A model generated the notes under the pieces. The model made no database searches, had not been told where the DNA came from, and saw only the letters and a program-made list of their open reading frames with translations. Source: a virus (Duplodnaviria; Heunggongvirae; Uroviricota; Caudoviricetes). From it: a stretch of 15,988 nt of DNA. Both the position numbers and the translations under genes were made by a program. Positions 1 through 15,988 of the stretch are shown in pieces; position 1 is the first letter of the stretch; each line of letters opens with the position of its first letter. Location: IMG/VR virus record IMGVR_UViG_2585427750_000018, positions 1 to 15,988 of that record; one strand, given 5' to 3'.

Positions 1-515
1 CCAAGCAGAGCAATAAAACCTGGTCCCTGACGCATCCGGTGGATGACGCAATTACCCTGCTGACACAGGGCGGCAGACTGACCTGTAAGTTCCGCCTGTC
101 AGGCGCACTGACCAACAATCAGTTCGGGCTGGGGATTTATCTGTATACGGATGCTCCCGTTCCTGATGGTGTGGCGATGACGGGTACCGGTAATCCGTTC
201 CTGATGTCGTACTTCACTCAGACCACTGACGGCAGAGTGAATCTGATGCATCACAGGAAAGCCGGAAACACGAAGCTGGGGGAGTTCGGCGATTACGGTA
301 ACGACTGGCAGACGCTGGAGCTGGTGTTCACCGCCGGCAGTGCCACGGTTACTCCGAAACTGAATGGAGTGGCTGGCCCGGCATTCCAGGTTATAAAAGA
401 CGGTCTGACACTGGGACTGAATGCGCTGACGCTGACGGATGTTACAAAAAATGCAGCGTATGGCGTTGAGATAGAAAGTCTGGTGCTGGAGATAAATGCA
501 CCGGCATCATCATAA
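1..515 (+). CDS. 3' part of an upstream gene (5'-truncated by window edge); product unidentified, possibly a beta-rich or carbohydrate-binding C-terminal domain of a moron protein
   Basis: Frame 3 is open from position 3 with no stop until TAA at 513-515, so the gene begins upstream of the window. Gly/Thr/Asn-rich, no recognised catalytic motif. It sits directly upstream of the holin, where lambdoid prophages often carry moron genes. Confidence 0.45.
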
Positions 516-600
516 AAAGTGAGCCAGTCAAATGGAAGGTATCGTTAAACTCACCGGTAGTGTCAGTGGGTCGTCTGAGACGCCTGCATGAGTTATCAGA

Positions 601-632
601 GCCATCAGTAGTTAACTGGTGGCTTTTTTATT
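601..632 (+). terminator. Putative rho-independent terminator downstream of the first gene
   Basis: Stem gccatcag (601-608), 7-nt loop, ctggtggc (616-623) with one G-U pair, followed by ttttttatt. Confidence 0.5.
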
Positions 633-664
633 GTTGTCAGCTTCCGGATAACGGGAGACGGGGT

Positions 665-880
665 ATGTACCAGATGGAAAAAATCACAACAGGTGTGTCA
701 TACACCACGTCAGCGGTAGGGACGGGATACTGGTTACTGCAACTGCTGGACAAAGTCTCTCCGTCCCAGTGGGTGGCAATAGGTGTACTGGGGAGTCTGC
801 TGTTTGGCCTGCTGACGTATCTGACTAACCTGTATTTCAAAATCAGGGAGGACCGCCGTAAGACGGCGCGGGGAGACTAA
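665..880 (+). CDS. S: Class II holin (phage 21 S21-like pinholin), 71 aa with a second in-frame Met at 674 (68-aa form)
   Basis: Translation [71 protein letters not shown] closely resembles the phage 21 S holin as I recall it (two TMDs, SPSQW motif, charged C-terminus). GGAG at about 653-656 precedes ATG 665. The ORF-track start at 560 is probably over-extended. Confidence 0.9.
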
Positions 881-884
881 AGCG

Positions 885-1433
885 ATGAAGAAAAAATACG
901 AACTGGTTGTTAAAGAGATAAATAATTACCCGGATAAGATTGCTGTTACTGTGGCACTTGAAATTGGCGGGCATCCGTCGTTGTTGTTGCCACATGTGGC
1001 GATTAGTCTTGACCGTACTGAAGGTGCCACGCTGGAGTTCTACGAAGCTGAGGCGAAAAAACAGGCGAAGCAGTTTTTCATGGATATTGTTGCCGGGTTA
1101 TGCGAAGGGGATGAACCGTCACCGGAAAAGCGCCCCGTAATTTTAGATGCGCAGGATGTATTGATAACCTACAAAGGAAAGCTACCGGGAAGAATTACTT
1201 GTTCTCTGAAGATGCCGCCGTCAACACTGCGGTCAGAAAAAGATGATGTTGAATCGCGTATTGAAAAACTGGAGTGCTATATCGCTGAATTGAAAAAAAG
1301 CACCCCAACAAAAAATGAGGTGCTTGCAGCAGACGAAATGAAAGAAGCTATTCCTGATCGCGCGGCGAATCTAAGCTGCGCTTCATGGTTGAAAGAGCAT
1401 CTTCAGCAGCCTGAAAAAAAAACGCCGCGATGA
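885..1433 (+). CDS. Hypothetical protein (182 aa), no recognised domain; first gene of a two-gene insertion between holin and endolysin
   Basis: ATG 5 nt after the holin stop with GGGAGA 8 nt upstream. Coding-like Lys/Glu-rich composition, no hydrophobic segment. Visibly more AT-rich than the flanking lysis genes. Confidence 0.6.
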   Translation: MKKKYELVVKEINNYPDKIAVTVALEIGGHPSLLLPHVAISLDRTEGATLEFYEAEAKKQAKQFFMDIVAGLCEGDEPSPEKRPVILDAQDVLITYKGKLPGRITCSLKMPPSTLRSEKDDVESRIEKLECYIAELKKSTPTKNEVLAADEMKEAIPDRAANLSCASWLKEHLQQPEKKTPR

Positions 1434-1470
1434 GCAGTTTGCTGCGTTTTACGATTATTGCCGGAAAGTG

Positions 1471-1875
1471 ATGAGCAGAAATCTCGCAGAGTGTTTCAGT
1501 ATTCATAATGATAATTTCAGTGACCTGGAATGGGAGTGTAACCGGCCATCCTTTGTTGTATCCGGTGATGCTGGGAAAATAACCATCTCAGAAAATGGAA
1601 AAGTAACACCGCCATCGCACCAGCACAGTGAGGAGCTCATTGAATTTGCCATTGATTACCTGAAGAACAATAAAAAGCAGGGGCTGATGAAGTGCATTGG
1701 TCGTTGCATGGGATATCTTCAGGTAGCCGCTGAGATTGAAGCGCTGGCCAGTGGTGCTGATAAGGATGCAATTGTGCGGGAGGCTCTTCTTCGTGATTTT
1801 AATACTCCACCCTTTAAAAAAGTGCCGGCTTACTGGCTTCATCCGGGGCTGACTTATCTTAAAGTGCGTATTTAG
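1471..1875 (+). CDS. Hypothetical protein (about 134 aa), no recognised domain; second gene of the holin-endolysin insertion
   Basis: ORF with ATG at 1471 (GTG at 1468 also in frame), stop TAG at 1873-1875. AT-rich like its neighbour; soluble, several Cys residues. Confidence 0.55.
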   Translation: MSRNLAECFSIHNDNFSDLEWECNRPSFVVSGDAGKITISENGKVTPPSHQHSEELIEFAIDYLKNNKKQGLMKCIGRCMGYLQVAAEIEALASGADKDAIVREALLRDFNTPPFKKVPAYWLHPGLTYLKVRI

Positions 1876-1911
1876 TGGGCCAGGGACAGCGGCTGAATAT
1901 TTAATATATCC

Positions 1912-2445
1912 ATGAACACCAAAATCAAATACGGCCTGTCGGCTGCCGTTCTGGCGCTGATTGCCGCTGGTGCGTCTGCGCCTGAAATTCTCGACCAGTT
2001 TCTTGACGAAAAAGAAGGTAACCACACCACGGCATACCGTGATGGTGCGGGTATCTGGACCATCTGCCGTGGAGCCACCCGGGTGGATGGTAAGCCTGTT
2101 ATTCCTGGCATGAAGCTGTCGAAGGGGAAATGCGACCAGGTTAACGCCATTGAGCGTGATAAGGCGCTGGCATGGGTGGCGAAAAACATCAAAGTGCCAC
2201 TGACTGAACCCCAGAAAGCGGGTATTGCGTCATTCTGTCCTTACAACATTGGCCCAGGTAAGTGTTTCCCGTCGACGTTTTATAAACGAATTAATGCAGG
2301 CGATCGCAGGGGGGCGTGTGAGGCGATTCGCTGGTGGATTAAGGACGGTGGCAGAGACTGCCGTATTCGCTCAAACAACTGTTACGGTCAGGTATCCCGT
2401 CGCGACCAGGAGAGTGCGCTGGCGTGCTGGGGAATTGACAGATAA
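1912..2445 (+). CDS. R: SAR endolysin (T4-lysozyme-like muramidase, phage 21 R21 / P1 Lyz type)
   Basis: N-terminal weakly hydrophobic Gly/Ala-rich signal-anchor-release segment (GLSAAVLALIAAGASA) followed by an E...D...T catalytic triad context (EGNHTTAYRDGAGIWTI). This is the type of endolysin that partners a pinholin. Confidence 0.9.
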   Translation: MNTKIKYGLSAAVLALIAAGASAPEILDQFLDEKEGNHTTAYRDGAGIWTICRGATRVDGKPVIPGMKLSKGKCDQVNAIERDKALAWVAKNIKVPLTEPQKAGIASFCPYNIGPGKCFPSTFYKRINAGDRRGACEAIRWWIKDGGRDCRIRSNNCYGQVSRRDQESALACWGIDR

Positions 2446-2539
2446 GCAGAATATTTTGCTGAAAAATGCGGTTTGCTCGCACGGACGGATAACACGAAAT
2501 CCTGCGAACTGACAAAAACTAAGTGAATAAAAGTAAAAA

Positions 2540-2574
2540 CCCCGTTTGTTGGCTGCAAGCGGGGTTTTGTGTTT
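2540..2574 (+). terminator. Putative rho-independent terminator between endolysin and the spanin genes
   Basis: 9-bp stem ccccgtttg / caagcgggg (one G-U pair) with a 7-nt loop, followed by ttttgtgttt. Confidence 0.5.
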
Positions 2575-2604
2575 CCTGACTCTGGAAAAGTCAAAGGAGA
2601 AAGT

Positions 2605-2742
2605 GTGTTTGATTTTAGCAAACTGATTCGGGAGATTCGAGTGATGGCTGAAAAATTATCCACCTGGAAGTTCATTCTTATCTGGCTGGTGTTTGTGATT
2701 ATGGCCTCCGGTTATTTCATCGGTCAGATACGCTGGTGGTGA
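2605..2742 (+). CDS. Small hydrophobic peptide (32 aa from ATG 2644, or 45 aa from GTG 2605), predicted single transmembrane helix; translationally coupled to Rz
   Basis: AAGGAG at 2594-2599 lies 5 nt before GTG 2605; ATG at 2644. Sequence MAEKLSTWKFILIWLVFVIMASGYFIGQIRWW. Stop TGA 2740-2742 sits immediately before the Rz ATG at 2744. Below the ORF-track length threshold. Confidence 0.4.
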   Translation: MFDFSKLIREIRVMAEKLSTWKFILIWLVFVIMASGYFIGQIRWW

Positions 2743-2743
2743 A

Positions 2744-3211
2744 ATGAACCGCGTACTGTGCGTGGTCATCATTGCCCTGCTGGTGGCCTGTGGTGCGCTT
2801 AGTCTGGGGCTGAATCATTACCGTGATAACGCCATAACCTACAAAGAGCAGCGCGATAAAAAAGTCAGTGAGCTGGAGCAGGCAAATGCAACCATTACTG
2901 ATATGCAGCAGCGCCAGCGTGATGTTGCTGCACTTGATGCCAGATACTCGAGGGAATTAGCCGATGCGAGAGCTGAAAATGAAACTCTTCGCGCTGACGT
3001 TGCCGCTGGTCGTAAGCGCCTGCGGATCAACGCCACCTGTCCAGGCTCCGTGCGTGAAGCCCCCGCCACCTCCGGCGTGGATAATGCAACCGGCCCCCAA
3101 CTGGCAGACACCGTTACACGGGATTATTTCACCCTCAGAGAGCGGCTGATGACGATGCACAAGCAACTGGAAGGGGCACAGGACTATATCCGCACTCAGT
3201 GCCTGAAATAA
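2744..3211 (+). CDS. Rz: Rz i-spanin (inner-membrane spanin subunit)
   Basis: Translation aligns along its length with lambda Rz as I recall it (N-terminal TMD, then NHYRDNAITYK...RQRDVAALDA...DYFTLRERL). Confidence 0.9.
   Translation: MNRVLCVVIIALLVACGALSLGLNHYRDNAITYKEQRDKKVSELEQANATITDMQQRQRDVAALDARYSRELADARAENETLRADVAAGRKRLRINATCPGSVREAPATSGVDNATGPQLADTVTRDYFTLRERLMTMHKQLEGAQDYIRTQCLK
2964..3149 (+). CDS. Rz1: Rz1 o-spanin (outer-membrane lipoprotein), embedded in the +1 frame of Rz
   Basis: Entirely inside Rz in another frame. Lipobox LVVSAC, proline-rich CVKPPPPPAWIMQPAPNWQTPLHGIISPSE, very similar to lambda Rz1. Alternative start at the second Met (2979). Confidence 0.85.
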   Translation: MRELKMKLFALTLPLVVSACGSTPPVQAPCVKPPPPPAWIMQPAPNWQTPLHGIISPSESG

Positions 3212-3486
3212 GTTTTGTTGATGCGCCGTATCGTCGCTGTATTCCCTCATTAACAGAGACCGCAGCCCGACAGGGAGACTCCTCTGCGCGAGTGTGCGGG
3301 GATAATCAAAAACGATACACACCGGGGTTTACCGCGTTAACGGAGCGCGGCGTTGTCCCCTCATGGTCGCTGGTTCGGTGCGATGGTGGAAGAAACCGGA
3401 CGATGTGTTACCTCGCAAGACCTGTTATGTCATGTGTCTGATTTGTGATTTAAGTCGGATAATTGTCGTTGCCATTAAGCAGAGGA

Positions 3487-3529
3487 TTGATGGCCGACAG
3501 GGTGGCATTGTTAGAATAAGACTTATTCT
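3487..3529 (+). promoter_or_regulatory. Candidate sigma70 promoter (TTGATG ... TGtTAGAAT) overlapped by a perfect 8-1-8 palindrome AGAATAAG-A-CTTATTCT (3513-3529), upstream of the lipoprotein moron
   Basis: Read directly from the sequence. The -35/-10 spacing is about 19 nt, which is suboptimal, so the promoter call is weak. The palindrome is perfect and overlaps the -10 and predicted start region, which is operator-like. Confidence 0.3.
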
Positions 3530-3543
3530 TATCTGTGCCGGGA

Positions 3544-3876
3544 ATGAAAATGAAAAGAAATCTTCCGTTAATTATTTTGTTGTCTTCTCTGGTTATGGGC
3601 TGTACGCAACATAAAACAGATATGCCCCGACAGTTGGTTAAGGCATTACCACAATATCCGGCCTATGCAGCGGCAAATTATATAAAGGGACGGGTTGATG
3701 TGAGGTTTGATATTGGTGCTGATGGTACTGTCACCCGAATTGAGTTTATTCGTTCAGAGCCGCACCATCTGTTTGATGAGCAGGTTGTAAAGGCGATGGC
3801 AAAATGGCGATTTGAGAAGGACAGGCCGCGTAAAGGCGTGAAGAAAACGTTTATCTTTAGTCCTTCTGCACCCTGA
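3544..3876 (+). CDS. Lipoprotein with a TonB C-terminal-like domain (moron in the bor-equivalent position)
   Basis: N-terminus MKMKRNLPLIILLSSLVMGC has a signal peptide and lipobox, with Thr at +2. The remainder (YIKGRVDVRFDIGADGTVTRIEFIRSEPHHLFDEQVVKAMAKWRFEKDRPRKGVKKTFIF) aligns with the E. coli TonB C-terminal domain as I recall it (EGQVKVKFDVTPDGRVDNVQIL...FEREVKNAMRRWRYEPGKPGSG). The region is AT-rich. The ORF-track start at GTG 3535 is also possible. Confidence 0.75.
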   Translation: MKMKRNLPLIILLSSLVMGCTQHKTDMPRQLVKALPQYPAYAAANYIKGRVDVRFDIGADGTVTRIEFIRSEPHHLFDEQVVKAMAKWRFEKDRPRKGVKKTFIFSPSAP

Positions 3877-4007
3877 TTATTTCATCAGAAATTAATTATC
3901 ACTCTGTTGTTATTCTGTACATCCCGGCAGGGTAAGTCTTGTTCCGTCGGATATGAAGATGAAATATTGTGGGAGGACAGTGGGTACCTGCTCCTGTAAC
4001 CGAACGT

Positions 4008-4208
4008 TCATTTCTCGTTATTTGTCATGCTGGCCGGGCGCAGATGCGTTGCATCTGTTGCCAGCCTTCTCCTGCAGGCTTCAATAACCCACGCTGAAAA
4101 GTTACCGGAACCTTTATGTTCAAGGGCGATATTGATCTGTTCAATCATGTGATTGGGGAAACGGATGTTGCGGGTTGTTGTTCTGCGGGGCCGGTTTTTC
4201 GATGACAT
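4008..4208 (-). CDS. Small DNA-binding-like protein, DUF3950 (YlcI/YnfO-like) family candidate
   Basis: Minus-strand 66-aa ORF with a GAGGA RBS. Basic N-terminus (KNRPRRTTTRNIRFP) and an FSAWVIEACRRRL motif, as in the small proteins found just upstream of terminase genes in E. coli lambdoid prophages. Family assignment is from memory. Confidence 0.6.
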   Translation of the reverse strand: MSSKNRPRRTTTRNIRFPNHMIEQINIALEHKGSGNFSAWVIEACRRRLATDATHLRPASMTNNEK

Positions 4209-4249
4209 TTTCTTTCCTCTGGTGACAAGCTATATGGAGAGGATTTTAC

Positions 4250-4615
4250 ATGGCTGTGCTTCGTACGTTACCGGGCAGAATCAAAACACTGAATACCCGA
4301 CGGGTGAATATTCTGAAGGGTGAACAGCGTCGTGTCAGTGGCAGTGCACGTGTTTCCCTCAAGCGTCATATCTGGCTCAGGGATGCCGGGCAGTGCCGTC
4401 TCTGTGGTCGTGTGGTTGACCTCTGTGACAGTGAACTCGATCACCGAATTGCACTTCAGTTCGGTGGTGGTAATGAGGAGACGAATCTCTGGACGCTCTG
4501 TACCGAATGCCATCGACAAAAGTCTGCTCGTGAAGCGGCGAGTGATATGCCGGACCCGACGCTGCCGGAGGTGTCCGGAGGTAGTGGCAGAGAGGACGAC
4601 ATCATCGGACTGTAA
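4250..4615 (+). CDS. HNH endonuclease (terminase-associated phage HNH protein)
   Basis: Cys pairs (CRLCGR ... CTECH) and the DHRIALQFGG...N..LWTLCTECHRQK motif typical of HNH nucleases. Strong GGAGAGGA RBS. Adjacent to the cos/terminase region, as in HK97-like phages. Confidence 0.85.
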   Translation: MAVLRTLPGRIKTLNTRRVNILKGEQRRVSGSARVSLKRHIWLRDAGQCRLCGRVVDLCDSELDHRIALQFGGGNEETNLWTLCTECHRQKSAREAASDMPDPTLPEVSGGSGREDDIIGL

Positions 4616-4618
4616 CCC

Positions 4619-4678
4619 GAGCGGGGGGGGTATCATCCGGCGTAAAAAACGATCGCTTTGGACACCGCCCCCCGTCTC
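4619..4678. promoter_or_regulatory. Candidate cos-site core: imperfect two-fold symmetric G8/C6-containing arms flanking about 30 bp
   Basis: GAGCGGGGGGGG (4619-4630) and its near-reverse-complement CCGCCCCCCGTCTC (4665-4678), in the intergenic region between the HNH gene and TerS, where HK97-like phages place cos. Confidence 0.3.
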
Positions 4679-4706
4679 ACGCAGAGAAAAAATTCCCGTT
4701 TCAGGG

Positions 4707-4834
4707 CAGTTAACATGTTAACTGGCTGTCCGGGCATTTTTGCGGTTTTTATCTTTATTATTCAGTTTGTTGCGTGGAAAAAATGTTAACAGGCTTTTTC
4801 AGCAAATGTTAACCAGGCAGCAGTTAACATTTGC
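4707..4834. repeat. Cluster of GTTAACAT/ATGTTAAC motifs: 18-bp perfect palindrome (4707-4724), single copy (about 4780-4789), and 12-bp inverted repeat with 9-bp spacer (4802-4834); candidate terminase small-subunit binding sites (cosB-like)
   Basis: Read directly: CAGTTAACATGTTAACTG; AAAATGTTAAC; GCAAATGTTAAC-caggcagca-GTTAACATTTGC. Located immediately upstream of TerS. Confidence 0.5.
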
Positions 4835-4904
4835 GGCATGAGACGCCGGGAAAAATGGGCTGAACCATACCCGGCTGAGTGCGTTATGGACCCGGGAGGA
4901 GGCT

Positions 4905-5321
4905 GTGCTGACAACGCAAAAACGAAAATTTGCGCTGGCGCTCATGTCCGGGAAAAACAAAACAGCGTCAGCCATTGCCGCTGGTTATTCGGCGAAGACC
5001 GCCAGGGTTAAAGGCTCGCAGCTGGCAAAAGATCCGGAGGTGCTTGCGTTTATAGCCCGTAAACAATGCGAGACGGTGGAGGTGGATGAGGTTCCTGTTT
5101 ACCGGCAGAAAAAATCAGAGCCGGAGGATAAACCCCGTCGCCGTGAGGCGGCTGCAATACCACAGCCGGACGAAAACAATCCGGAGATGCCACCGTCCGC
5201 GGTGATATCTCCTGGTATTGAATATATGGAGGACGGTCTTCCCGATCCGGTGAAAGCCATGGGGCGGATCCTGGTGGAAAACATCAACACCGATCCGAAA
5301 CTGGCACTGGATGCGGCCTAG
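4905..5321 (+). CDS. Terminase small subunit (HTH-containing); ends at an in-frame TAG, but the same frame stays open and coding-like to TGA 5466-5468
   Basis: N-terminal motif QKRKFALALMSGKNKTASAIAAGYSAKTARVKGSQLAKDPEV is typical of phage TerS. GGGAGGAGG RBS before GTG 4905. After TAG 5319-5321 the frame continues KLAQFTHHKKGDTGKKSAKGDAAKKAANRFAVPPPPRLVVNNDNEGNG and ends in an ATGA overlap with the TerL start. Confidence 0.75.
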   Translation: MLTTQKRKFALALMSGKNKTASAIAAGYSAKTARVKGSQLAKDPEVLAFIARKQCETVEVDEVPVYRQKKSEPEDKPRRREAAAIPQPDENNPEMPPSAVISPGIEYMEDGLPDPVKAMGRILVENINTDPKLALDAA

Positions 5322-5464
5322 AAGCTGGCGCAGTTCACGCACCATAAAAAAGGGGATACCGGGAAAAAATCGGCAAAAGGTGATGCCGCGAAAAAAGCGG
5401 CTAACCGTTTTGCGGTGCCACCGCCACCCCGACTGGTGGTGAATAATGATAATGAGGGCAACGG

Positions 5465-13615: not shown

Positions 13616-14332
13616 ATGTCTGCTTTGTATGAACGCTCACAGCTGACGCAGGTGATGATTTCATCTGCCCCGGCGACTGCTGAAACTATGGATAAGGCGG
13701 AATATCTGCGCCTGGACTGCACCATCAAGGAAGTCCAGTTCACCGCCGGTCAGAAACAGGATATTGATGTGACCACGCTCTGCTCCACAGAGCAGGAGAA
13801 CATCAACGGTCTGGGGGCGTCGTCCGAGATTTCCATGTCGGGTAATTTTTATCTGAATCAGGCCCAGAACGCCCTGCGTGATGCCTATGACAATGACACG
13901 GTGTATGCGTTTAAGGTGCAGTTTCCGTCCGGTAAGGGCTTTAAGTTCCTGGCGGAAGTGCGTCAGCACACCTGGTCATCCGGTACCAACGGCGTGGTGG
14001 CTGCAACGTTTTCACTTCGCCTGAAGGGTAAACCGGTGTCCTATGTGGTACCGCTGGCGTTTGTAAAAAATCTGGAGAAGACACTTACCATGAATACCGG
14101 TGCGCTGCTGACAATGTCAGTCAGTGTCAACGGGGGAACGCCGCCTTATAAACACGCCTGGAAGAAGGATGGTCAGCCGGTAGAGGGACAGACTACTGAC
14201 ACTTTCAGTAAAGCCAATACGCAGTCAGGTGATAAGGGGGCTTATACCTGCGAGGTAACGGATTCTGCAGAACAGCCGCAGAGCATTACCTCTGATGCGT
14301 GTACAGTAACGGTTAATGGTGCGGGCGGATAA
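13616..14332 (+). CDS. Major tail (tube) protein with C-terminal Ig-like domain
   Basis: 238 aa with a strong RBS. The C-terminal ~90 aa (GGTPPYKHAWKKDGQPVEGQTTDTFSKANTQSGDKGAYTCEVTD...ACTVTV) has an Ig-like pattern, as on lambda gpV-type tail tube proteins. Confidence 0.8.
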   Translation: MSALYERSQLTQVMISSAPATAETMDKAEYLRLDCTIKEVQFTAGQKQDIDVTTLCSTEQENINGLGASSEISMSGNFYLNQAQNALRDAYDNDTVYAFKVQFPSGKGFKFLAEVRQHTWSSGTNGVVAATFSLRLKGKPVSYVVPLAFVKNLEKTLTMNTGALLTMSVSVNGGTPPYKHAWKKDGQPVEGQTTDTFSKANTQSGDKGAYTCEVTDSAEQPQSITSDACTVTVNGAGG

Positions 14333-14337
14333 GGCTT

Positions 14338-14712
14338 ATGGCAAAAGATCTGAAAACACTGGCGCTGGCCAGACTGTCGGGGTTCCGTCATAAAACGGTG
14401 AAGGTGCCAGAATGGAGAAATGTCAGCGTGGTGCTGCGGGAGCCTTCGGCAGAGGCCTGGTATCTGTGGCAGGAAGTGCTCAATGGTGATGGAGAGGATG
14501 ACGATACCCTGTCGGTGGTGGCGAAAACCCGCCGTAACCTGGAAGCGGATGTGACGCTGTTCTGCGATGTCCTGTGTGATACTGACCTGCAACGGGTGTT
14601 CACTCCGGACGACCGTGAGCAGGTGCTGGCCGTCTATGGTCCGGTACATGCCCGGTTGCTGCGTCAGGCACTGGAACTGATCGCTGATGCAGAGTCGGCC
14701 AGAAAAAAGTAG
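14338..14712 (+). CDS. Tail assembly chaperone (lambda gpG analogue)
   Basis: 124-aa acidic protein directly upstream of the tape measure gene, ending at a slippery heptamer immediately before its stop codon. Confidence 0.8.
   Translation: MAKDLKTLALARLSGFRHKTVKVPEWRNVSVVLREPSAEAWYLWQEVLNGDGEDDDTLSVVAKTRRNLEADVTLFCDVLCDTDLQRVFTPDDREQVLAVYGPVHARLLRQALELIADAESARKK
14703..14709 (+). promoter_or_regulatory. Programmed -1 ribosomal frameshift site A_AAA_AAG (G to G-T fusion)
   Basis: Heptamer A AAA AAG in the G frame, immediately 5' of the TAG stop. The -1 frame is open from here to 15017. Confidence 0.7.
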
Positions 14713-15017
14713 CCCGCCCGGAAATTCGCTTTCTGATGCGACTTGCGCTCCGTCTGGGGCGCACCTTATCCGAACTGCGGCACAGCCTGAGTGCGAGCGA
14801 GGCGATGATGTGGATGGAGTTCGACAGGGTATCCCCGCTGGGTGATGAGCGCGGGGATATCCGTAATGCACAGATCGTGAAAGCGGTTTTCGGGGCACAG
14901 GGGATGAATGTTGCACTGAAGGACGCCATGCTCTGCTGGGGCGAGGATGAGGATAAGCCGGAGGTGGATCCGTTTGCGGCGCTGGAAGACGCGCTGAGCT
15001 TTGCAGCAATGTCATAA
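14709..15017 (+). CDS. Tail assembly chaperone T-domain extension (lambda gpT analogue), expressed as a G-T fusion by -1 frameshift
   Basis: The -1 frame reads VARPEIRFLMRLALRLGRTLSELRHS... through to TAA 15015-15017. Conserved position between G and the tape measure gene. Confidence 0.7.
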   Translation, partial: VARPEIRFLMRLALRLGRTLSELRHSLSASEAMMWMEFDRVSPLGDERGDIRNAQIVKAVFGAQGMNVALKDAMLCWGEDEDKPEVDPFAALEDALSFAAMS

Positions 15018-15026
15018 ATAATGATG

Positions 15027-15052
15027 AAAACCTGCTGTGGCAGGTTTTTTTT
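15027..15052 (+). terminator. Terminator-like hairpin between the chaperone and tape measure genes
   Basis: AAAACCTGC-TGTG-GCAGGTTTT followed by a T-run. Confidence 0.45.
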
Positions 15053-15068
15053 GCCCGGAGAAAGGTGA

Positions 15069-15988
15069 ATGGCGACGTTACGTGAACTGATTATCAAAAT
15101 TTCGGCAAATTCACAGTCATTCCAGTCGGAGATCCAGCGGGCGTCCCGTATGGGCAGTGAATATTACCGGACCCTGCAGAATGGCGGGCGTCAGGCCGCT
15201 GCGGCAGCCCGGGAGCAGCGACGTGCCCTGGCTGAGCTGAACAGCCAGTTGACGGAAATTCGCGGTTCTGCTGTCGGAATGGCTGGCGCATTTGCCGGTG
15301 CCTTTGCCACCGGACACCTGATTTCTCTGGCCGATGAATGGAGTTCCGTGAATGCCCGACTGAAACAGGCGTCGCAGTCATTCGATGAATTTTCGTCATC
15401 ACAGAAAGTGCTGATGGATATCAGCCAGCGGACGGGCACGGCATTTTCGGATAATGCGGCCCTGTTTGCCCGTTCGGCTGCCTCAATGCGTGAATATGGT
15501 TACAGTGCCGGTGATGTACTGAAGGTGACGGAGGCCATTTCGACAGGGCTGAAAATATCCGGTGCCAGTACGGCAGAGGCGGGCTCGGGGATCACCCAGT
15601 TCAGCCAGGCGCTGGCACAGGGGGTGTTACGGGGGGAGGAATTTAATTCGGTCAATGAAAGCGGAGACCGGATCATACGTGCACTGGCTGCGGGTATGGG
15701 CGTGGCCCGTAAAGACCTTAAGGCGATGGCGGACGACGGCAAACTGACGGCGGATAAAGTCGTTCCTGCGTTAATCAGCCAGCTGGGGGTATTGCGTGAT
15801 GAATATGCCGCCATGCCGGAAACGGTCTCTGACGGGATCACAAAGGTGGAAAACGCCTTTATGGCCTGGGTGGGTGGCGCGAATGAAGCCAGCGGAGCGA
15901 CGAAAACGCTCTCCGGCGTGCTGAACGGTGTTGCCGGTAATATTGATAATGTGGCAACAGCCGCGGGGGCGCTGGTTGCCGTCGGGGT
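15069..15988 (+). CDS. Tail tape measure protein, N-terminal part (3'-truncated by window edge)
   Basis: ATG 15069 with GGAG RBS; open to the end of the window. Translation MATLRELIIKISANSQSFQSEIQRA...AEAGSGITQFSQALAQGVLRGEEFNSVNESGDRIIRALAAGMG has the typical tape-measure N-terminal domain. Not in the ORF track because it has no stop. Confidence 0.85.
   Translation, partial: MATLRELIIKISANSQSFQSEIQRASRMGSEYYRTLQNGGRQAAAAAREQRRALAELNSQLTEIRGSAVGMAGAFAGAFATGHLISLADEWSSVNARLKQASQSFDEFSSSQKVLMDISQRTGTAFSDNAALFARSAASMREYGYSAGDVLKVTEAISTGLKISGASTAEAGSGITQFSQALAQGVLRGEEFNSVNESGDRIIRALAAGMGVARKDLKAMADDGKLTADKVVPALISQLGVLRDEYAAMPETVSDGITKVENAFMAWVGGANEASGATKTLSGVLNGVAGNIDNVATAAGALVAVG

Follow-up and report, generated by a model that had tools for sequence, protein, structure and literature searches.

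Several proteins of phage or engineered origin are known to interfere, from the periplasm, with TonB-dependent traffic through the Escherichia coli outer membrane. The phage outer membrane lipoproteins Cor (phi80, N15, HK022 and T1) and Llp (T5) inactivate FhuA, a TonB-dependent transporter, from its periplasmic side, and the phages and colicins that enter by this route are expected to be resisted; in the case of Llp the action is allosteric and directed at one receptor. Llp has been shown to reach the periplasmic face of FhuA, where the footprints of TonB and Llp overlap, and Cor and Llp have a common fold of their own that is weakly CHAP-like (bioRxiv 10.64898/2026.03.26.714494). A second precedent is provided by the engineered periplasmic TonB fragments of Howard, Braun and co-workers, which act as free C-terminal domains (CTDs) with no energy source, should compete for TonB boxes and are dominant-negative for TonB-dependent transport. 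Such fragments are said to protect cells against phi80 and colicin M, as Howard et al. reportedly described in 2001 in the Journal of Bacteriology. According to a summary in bioRxiv 10.1101/2020.01.05.895219, the TonB system is inhibited by exported TonB fragments comprising residues 33-239, 103-239 and 122-239. The supply of TonB is described as limiting, with transporters competing for it. A third comparison is with Bor/Iss, a small outer membrane lipoprotein moron that lambda carries between Rz and cos. Here we describe a gene found in a stretch of 15,988 nucleotides (nt) of DNA (IMG/VR record IMGVR_UViG_2585427750_000018, positions 1 to 15,988; referred to below as the window), the carrier of which is a lambdoid E. 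coli prophage. The gene lies after the phage lysis cassette and encodes a lipoprotein, the mature part of which, judged by sequence and predicted structure, is essentially a free TonB C-terminal domain.

The resemblance to TonB was proposed in an earlier note made from the letters of this DNA, and profile searches and structure prediction now agree on it. The Pfam family TonB_C (PF03544) matches the lipoprotein with E=3.8e-15 and a score of 56.6 bits, well over the cut-off of 24.6, and TIGR01352 matches with 57.1 bits against a cut-off of 27.1 (E=1.7e-15). Alignment with residues 153-231 of E. coli TonB (PDB chains 1u07, 2gsk and 2grx) is free of gaps (E ~1e-15), with an identity to the E. coli TonB CTD of 36-38%. 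A model was built with AlphaFold2 (AF2) from an input alignment of 32 family members, and has a mean predicted local distance difference test score of 86, with a core above 95 over the TonB_C domain. The predicted fold is of the TonB CTD type, with two helices and a three-stranded sheet, and the best PDB matches found with Foldseek are the TonB CTD alone (1u07), in complex with BtuB (2gsk_B) and in complex with FhuA (2grx_C), all at a root-mean-square deviation of 1.0 Å, a target template modelling (TM) score of 0.89-0.92, a probability of 1.00 and E 1e-7. Domain III of TolA trails well behind (E >0.04, TM ~0.4). The alignment also revealed conservation of the PxYP motif and of the aromatic residues at TonB positions Y163, F180, F202, W213, Y215 (F here) and F230, and the beta3 strand, which in TonB pairs with the TonB box, is present. 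The likeness to the TonB CTD (residues ~150-239; 1U07, 2GSK, 2GRX) thus covers domain family, fold, PxYP motif, aromatic cluster and beta3.

The protein is nevertheless not TonB proper, a possibility that was rejected: the precursor has only 108 amino acids and a cleavable lipoprotein signal, and both the membrane anchor and the proline-rich spacer are absent. NCBIfam TonB equivalogs give 49-73 bits against cut-offs of 265-448, with only the C-terminal third of the profiles covered. Compared with TonB, the lipoprotein has no ExbBD coupling, its lipid anchor would sit in the opposite (outer) membrane, and Q160 and R166 are replaced by Leu and Tyr. Compared with the engineered fragments it is natural, lipid-anchored in the outer membrane, divergent and shorter, in that only residues 153-235 have an equivalent, whereas the shortest inhibitory fragment quoted starts at TonB residue 122.

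The gene most likely starts at position 3550 rather than at 3544, where an alternative in-frame ATG would give a precursor of 110 instead of 108 amino acids. This start is preferred because the spacing of a GGGAA motif fits the 3550 ATG only, and because the same start (MKR...) is used both in RefSeq ('TonB family protein', 108 amino acids) and in the curated record of phage 21; a GGA is found at the same spot upstream of the phage 21 allele. The span of 3544-3876 given in the earlier note has been shortened to match. The precursor begins MKRNLPLIILLSSLVMG-C-TQHKTDM, comprising a positively charged n-region, a hydrophobic core and a lipobox, and the lipobox pattern [LVI][ASTVIM][GAS]C without Asp at +2 is found when the sequence is read as MKRNLPLIILLSSLVMG followed by C-T-Q. 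The codon of the predicted lipidated residue, Cys18, occupies 3601-3603; the next residues are Thr (+2) and Gln (+3), which means that an Asp retention signal is absent, and the tether from Cys18 to the CTD is 7 residues long. The lipobox is conserved in relatives from E. coli, Klebsiella, Raoultella, Pantoea, Erwinia, Rahnella, Sodalis and some Serratia, and lipobox and non-Asp +2 residue are maintained down to 35% identity. The mature protein is probably lipidated and sorted to the outer membrane, as had been suggested from the lipobox LVMGC and the Thr at +2.

The reading that we favour, tentatively and with rather less than even confidence, is that the lipoprotein is an outer membrane-anchored TonB-box decoy that competes with host TonB. 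The lipid anchor and a tether of about seven residues would put the CTD just beneath the TonB-dependent transporters, and the lipoprotein would be unable to energise them because TonB's membrane anchor and ExbBD coupling are absent. Exposed TonB boxes would be bound by beta-strand augmentation, in the manner of TonB itself; the candidates are those of the transporters FhuA, BtuB, FepA and CirA, and possibly those of incoming group B colicins. Competition with host TonB would damp TonB-dependent entry, leaving a lysogen partly or fully protected against T1, phi80-type phages and TonB-dependent colicins and microcins, at the cost of reduced siderophore and B12 uptake. By analogy with Cor and Llp, resistance to phages and colicins using the affected route would be the expected phenotype, with the difference that Llp acts on one receptor whereas a decoy of TonB boxes would affect TonB-dependent transporters in general. 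Such a decoy is plausible because free TonB fragments inhibit the TonB system and because Llp shows that an outer membrane lipoprotein can gain access to FhuA. Transcription would take place at least with the late operon, and probably also from an extended -10 promoter of the gene's own that is associated with an operator-like palindrome. That the lipoprotein excludes TonB-dependent phages and colicins is the foremost reading, one among several that are considered below alongside the evidence that bears on them.

The genomic setting of the gene is summarised in Table 1. It starts 339 nt past the Rz stop codon on the same strand as the late lysis cassette, and a DUF3950/YnfO gene, an HNH endonuclease gene and the small terminase gene (terS) lie downstream. 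The earlier note had described it as AT-rich and downstream of Rz/Rz1, which is borne out (GC content 0.44 versus 0.55 for the window), and had placed it in the position of bor. Here the notion of a shared inter-module gap after Rz stands, but bor is not replaced, as the Rz-cos interval of phage 21 contains both bor, on the opposite strand, and a TonB_C gene, on the late-operon strand. Bor is a small outer membrane lipoprotein moron of the same gap, from which the present gene differs in strand and in having no sequence similarity to it. The genes of Cor and Llp adjoin tail or receptor-binding genes, whereas the TonB_C lipoprotein gene follows the lysis cassette.

Table 1. Coordinates of the lipoprotein gene, its parts and its neighbours in the window.
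Feature	Position	Strand	Basis or remark
Endolysin	1912-2445	+	Pfam Phage_lysozyme 2e-24
Rz i-spanin	2744-3211	+	Pfam Phage_lysis 4.5e-47
Rz1 o-spanin, embedded in Rz	2964-3149	+	Pfam Rz1 4.4e-20
Putative extended -10, TGtTAGAAT	3509..3517	+	Sequence reading; conserved in phage 21
Perfect 8-1-8 palindrome AGAATAAG-a-CTTATTCT, candidate operator	3513..3529	.	Located where relatives have a Fur box
Shine-Dalgarno-like GGGAA	3540..3544	+	5 nt before 3550 ATG; read from sequence
Lipoprotein precursor coding sequence, 108 amino acids	3550..3876 including stop	+	Open reading frame; start by Shine-Dalgarno spacing and RefSeq/phage 21 annotation
Signal peptide MKRNLPLIILLSS with lipobox LVMGC (3589-3603)	3550..3603	+	Read from sequence
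TonB C-terminal domain	3625..3861	+	~ E. coli TonB 153-231; Pfam, NCBIfam, PDB alignment, AF2 and Foldseek
HNH endonuclease gene	4250-4615		Downstream of lipoprotein gene
Small terminase gene (terS)	4905-5321		Downstream of lipoprotein gene

The allele found in the window is present in 7 of 112 related phage records, and more than 100 related Shiga toxin (Stx) phages have the flanking DNA only. Its carriers, at 97-98% protein identity, are JLK-2012 (two records), Lys8385Vzw and four Stx1a phages. Because the Stx phages share the flanks without the gene, it can be regarded as an insertion-type accessory gene; this, the AT-richness and a putative extended -10 that is kept in phage 21 all lend some support to the idea that it is a moron. 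A second allele, that of phage 21, is also carried by ev017, Perceval and several ECOR prophages. The non-coding DNA between Rz and the lipoprotein gene (~3215-3400) is identical to phage 21 at 111 of 129 aligned positions, with a 17-nt deletion in phage 21, and the coding sequence itself is less conserved (232 of 324 positions). The part of this stretch that was queried, 3300-3400, recurs in the more than 100 Stx phages that are without the gene. The stretch may be a conserved late-region element or a recombination junction. It is not a known RNA, since neither the whole window nor, at sensitive settings, the interval 3100-4300 gave a match to Rfam. One further long palindrome is perfect, and no others are in the window; this is CAGTTAACATGTTAACTG at 4707-4724, which lies between the HNH gene and terS, and may be a packaging element or a recognition element for the terminase or HNH enzyme. 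A prophage of E. coli AUSMDU00014361 is 99.8% identical to the window over 3400-3900. It carries three tandem DUF1076 genes after its tail fibre genes (locus L100, 13839-15834), and also a Lom-family gene. DUF1076 we take to be the NleG-type effector family, in which case this prophage would be a multi-cargo lambdoid element of the type found in Shiga toxin-producing (STEC) or enteropathogenic E. coli.

No terminator was detected by scanning between Rz and the lipoprotein gene or on either side of the gene, so that the Q-antiterminated late transcript must cover it. The position is constant: in every annotated phage or prophage locus inspected (the window, JLK-2012, phage 21, a STEC chromosome, ST131, a commensal, a Klebsiella phage and a Rahnella prophage) the gene is on the late strand in the interval between lysis cassette and terminase, despite differing endolysin and terminase types and identities down to 35%. 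In Sodalis the TonB_C gene likewise follows a phage lysozyme gene and an Rz-like open reading frame (ORF), and in Serratia montpellierensis it is followed by a small terminase gene. A late lytic function, in which TonB-dependent traffic is shut off, or the transporters are occupied, in the dying cell, would account for this constancy of strand and post-lysis position in every phage copy seen at identities of only 35-47%, as well as for the terminator-free interval after Rz. The benefit would be that late superinfection or colicin killing is blocked, or that loss of progeny on debris is avoided, as has been proposed for Cor and Llp, for which a role in protection from debris is discussed in the BASEL paper. 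We nonetheless consider this very unlikely. AT-richness, a candidate promoter of the gene's own and Fur boxes upstream of the Sodalis and Serratia prophage copies suggest expression outside the lytic programme, and the tail tip does not belong to the phi80 type. Lysed debris has no proton motive force, and TonB-dependent irreversible adsorption of phages such as T1 and phi80 to it is thus already off.

Upstream of the gene, the sequence TGtTAGAAT is a putative extended -10 that recurs as TGtCAGAAT in phage 21, though the flanks differ; a simple -35/-10 scan called no plus-strand promoter between Rz and the lipoprotein gene, this element included. It overlaps the perfect 8-1-8 palindrome at 3513-3529. 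Palindromes of this kind occur at two sites only in the 16 kb (three overlapping matches), which gives P ~0.007 for a 150-nt upstream stretch. In relatives the corresponding place is occupied by a Fur box. Relatives were collected with HMMER, searched exhaustively, and by scanning a single genome of each species, and most have a near-perfect Fur box ~30 nt (in some ~60 nt) upstream of the start, over a -10-like hexamer. These boxes match 12-14 of 14 positions of the 7-1-7 motif TGATAATnATTATCA and 14-17 of 19 positions of the 19-mer, and the observed 7-1-7 scores were reached by 0-1 of 300 shuffles. The 24 upstream windows of 100 nt contain 16 matches that reach 12/14 or more, as opposed to 4 in the remaining ~202 kb. 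Fur boxes were found at loci L004, L015, L018-L025, L027, L028, L030, L031, L034 and L046, and their carriers include the prophage copies of Sodalis and S. montpellierensis. Two further strong Fur matches lie away from the TonB_C gene, in the late regions of the Sodalis prophage (L030, 5670, 14/14) and of a Klebsiella phage (L014, 8606, 13/14). Since Fur boxes precede most chromosomal relatives and two prophage relatives, the family, and with it the ancestral gene, looks iron-regulated. For the decoy this would mean that the gene was captured from a Fur-controlled family and that, given the Fur boxes in relatives including the two prophage copies, its production would coincide with derepression of the transporters.

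The same boxes can be read in the opposite sense, with the lipoprotein as a positive accessory factor of iron uptake and the prophage copy as a fitness moron, not an exclusion factor. Induced together with the Fur regulon, it could pre-engage or hold the TonB boxes of loaded transporters, raising ligand affinity by thermodynamic linkage, or help to release and recycle limiting TonB; in both cases uptake by starved cells would improve. Such a role is favoured by the Fur boxes, which two prophage copies and most of the chromosomal relatives possess, and by the several non-phage chromosomal contexts, and linkage is possible in principle as ferrichrome-bound FhuA has a higher affinity for TonB (PMC11658791). 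Still, where free TonB CTD fragments in the periplasm have been studied by experiment, the sole precedent is inhibition. Genes for transporters, siderophores or exbBD were not seen beside the chromosomal copies inspected, and the Fur site of the E. coli phage alleles is weak or absent; on balance this role, though a serious rival to phage exclusion, appears unlikely.

The family is widespread. A homologue is found in 1618 of 5426 complete E. coli genomes (~30%), annotated in all of them as 'TonB family protein'; 416 of these share at least 95% nucleotide identity, and ~1200 fall at 60-80% (72-73% in the rows sampled) and represent the phage 21 type. Beyond E. coli, proteins of 105-135 amino acids with a signal, a lipobox and a TonB_C domain occur in Klebsiella, Raoultella, Pantoea, Erwinia, Serratia, Sodalis, Rahnella and Pseudescherichia, and the ORF is intact in all copies examined. 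Several of these relatives lie among ordinary chromosomal genes, and the view of the gene as a phage moron alone has been abandoned, as the family also occurs in chromosomal and plasmid contexts, usually with a Fur box. A pair consisting of a TonB_C lipoprotein gene and, after it, a GNAT acetyltransferase gene is found both on Klebsiella plasmids (K. variicola pKP91; L099, 3962-4825) and on a contig of Raoultella planticola (L023, 4001-4903), and the closest relative of the GNAT-paired copy is that of Klebsiella phage ST13-OXA48phi12.4, as would be expected of a cassette that travels from one kind of replicon to another. Phage and chromosomal copies intermingle in a neighbour-joining tree, a pattern that implies repeated exchange.

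A subgroup of paralogues in Serratia has an ordinary Sec signal in place of the lipoprotein signal, and is predicted to yield a soluble periplasmic TonB_C protein. The gene precedes a colicin E1-type immunity gene by 68 bp in the same orientation, with a pore-forming colicin gene convergent to them, and this three-gene module recurs in a chromosome, a plasmid-like contig and conjugative plasmids (L006/L007, 6001-8510; L012/L013, 5001-7447; L098, 4001-6498). The arrangement hints that the soluble paralogue is protective in the periplasm. It also bears on the suggestion that the ligand is something other than a TonB box, namely host TonB (as a heterodimer), ExbD, peptidoglycan or some other beta-strand ligand of the periplasm, such as the translocation segment of a bacteriocin, in which case the lipoprotein would be an envelope tether or toxin trap and transporter blocking would not be involved. 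The linkage of the soluble paralogue to an immunity gene, and to a toxin that resembles colicin A and would not use a TonB box, fits this suggestion; so do the conserved aromatics, which have been implicated in TonB CTD contacts, and the TonB homologue FusB (9hi3, among the fold matches), which binds its protein substrate directly. The fold is, however, far closer to the TonB CTD than to domain III of TolA by the Foldseek E values given above, and we regard a different ligand as distinctly unlikely.

A number of observations weigh against the decoy reading. At the level of residues, the position of TonB R166 is Tyr in all family members aligned, and that of Q160, which is adjacent to the TonB box, is variable, being Leu here, Tyr in phage 21 and Gln in Klebsiella. 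Q160L is a classic TonB-box suppressor allele of TonB (PMC11658791), and the idea that Leu at this position is a feature of the family was rejected on account of the other two residues. At the level of regulation, an inhibitor of iron uptake that is induced by iron starvation is physiologically awkward, and if the chromosomal relatives are under Fur control, this agrees no less well with a role in promoting uptake. The window, moreover, has only a weak counterpart of the relatives' boxes: its best match to the Fur 19-mer GATAATGATAATCATTATC is 13/19 (3515-3533, minus strand, p ~0.03 by shuffling), its match to the 7-1-7 motif is 9/14, and in phage 21 the right arm of the palindrome is deleted. 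The Serratia link is not specific support for a TonB-box decoy because the colicin looks Tol-dependent, with an N-terminus that is colicin A-like and of the Tol-binding type; a DSMTVTG motif considered as its TonB box was withdrawn for this reason. The J tip of the AUSMDU00014361 prophage is 55% identical to those of lambda and 434 and is not phi80-like, and the FhuA-dependent phages phi80, N15 and HK022 are absent from the J-tip matches listed, which leaves self-exclusion via an FhuA-type tail unsupported. Finally, no match was returned by PADLOC, and no published functional study of the gene was found in the full-text literature; the genome announcement of phage 21 does not mention it.

Alternative identities were also considered and set aside. 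A spanin was rejected, as separate Rz and Rz1 genes are present in the window and the lipoprotein is globular, being a TonB_C domain with neither the coiled coil of an i-spanin nor the proline-rich character of an o-spanin. PHROG 1267, which is labelled 'Rz-like spanin', matches the lipoprotein and its relatives at 4e-42 to 1e-17; it is in effect this TonB_C lipoprotein family, and the label looks wrong. Bor was rejected on the grounds that Pfam yields TonB_C and TonB_2 only and that phage 21 carries bor as well. Kinship with Cor and Llp was likewise dismissed, given the different fold described for them and the Pfam result, and a Foldseek search of the AF2 model against the BFVD viral structure library gave zero matches at E <= 0.001; the possibility that Cor itself is TonB-like, left undecided in the earlier note, has therefore been dropped. 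In GenBank, records MT225100, OV696612 and LR597643 are among those that bear the labels 'protein TonB', 'TonB fragment' or 'partial tonB-like membrane protein'. The PHROG and GenBank labels misfit an exported TonB-CTD lipoprotein and are misleading, and they have spread through phage annotation.

The last two of these GenBank labels would suit a non-functional remnant, that is, a captured tonB fragment that is carried passively. The window and phage 21 alleles share 70% amino-acid identity with a ratio of non-synonymous to synonymous substitution rates (dN/dS) of 0.12-0.18, and because of this ratio the gene is considered to be under strong purifying selection. An identity to the TonB CTD of 38%, a signal and lipobox conserved across genera, the low dN/dS and the intact ORFs make a passive remnant extremely improbable; the same identity, cross-genus lipoprotein signal and dN/dS led to rejection of a recent fragment of host tonB, and on these comparisons a dead tonB fragment is essentially ruled out.

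The ORF is thus known and widely annotated, albeit by domain name only or wrongly, and the family-wide Fur boxes, the mobility between chromosomes, plasmids and phages, and the paralogues in colicin modules appear to be new observations. It is conceivable, though we think it doubtful, that stand-alone TonB CTDs make up a mobile and unrecognised class of import gatekeepers in Enterobacterales, ancestrally Fur-controlled, anchored in the outer membrane or soluble (in Serratia), and repeatedly exchanged between chromosomes, plasmids, colicin modules and prophages, which would intercept TonB boxes as a defence against phages and bacteriocins. If so, prophages would possess, in the window and in ~30% of E. 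coli genomes, a defence of generic type whose fold differs from that of Cor and Llp. The Fur boxes of the relatives offer a cheap experimental handle, and they also suggest another option, namely that iron uptake in enterobacteria involves these proteins as components so far overlooked. Should the decoy reading be true, exclusion would operate by mimicry of the energy transducer, which would be mechanistically new with respect to allosteric closure of one receptor. About one-third of E. coli strains, among them ST131, NC101, O157 and commensals, would then tune all of their TonB-dependent traffic, with a bearing on sensitivity to T1/phi80-type phages, to group B colicins and to the TonB-dependent microcins of gut competition, and on the acquisition of iron and B12 and the uptake of siderophore-conjugated antibiotics (cefiderocol).

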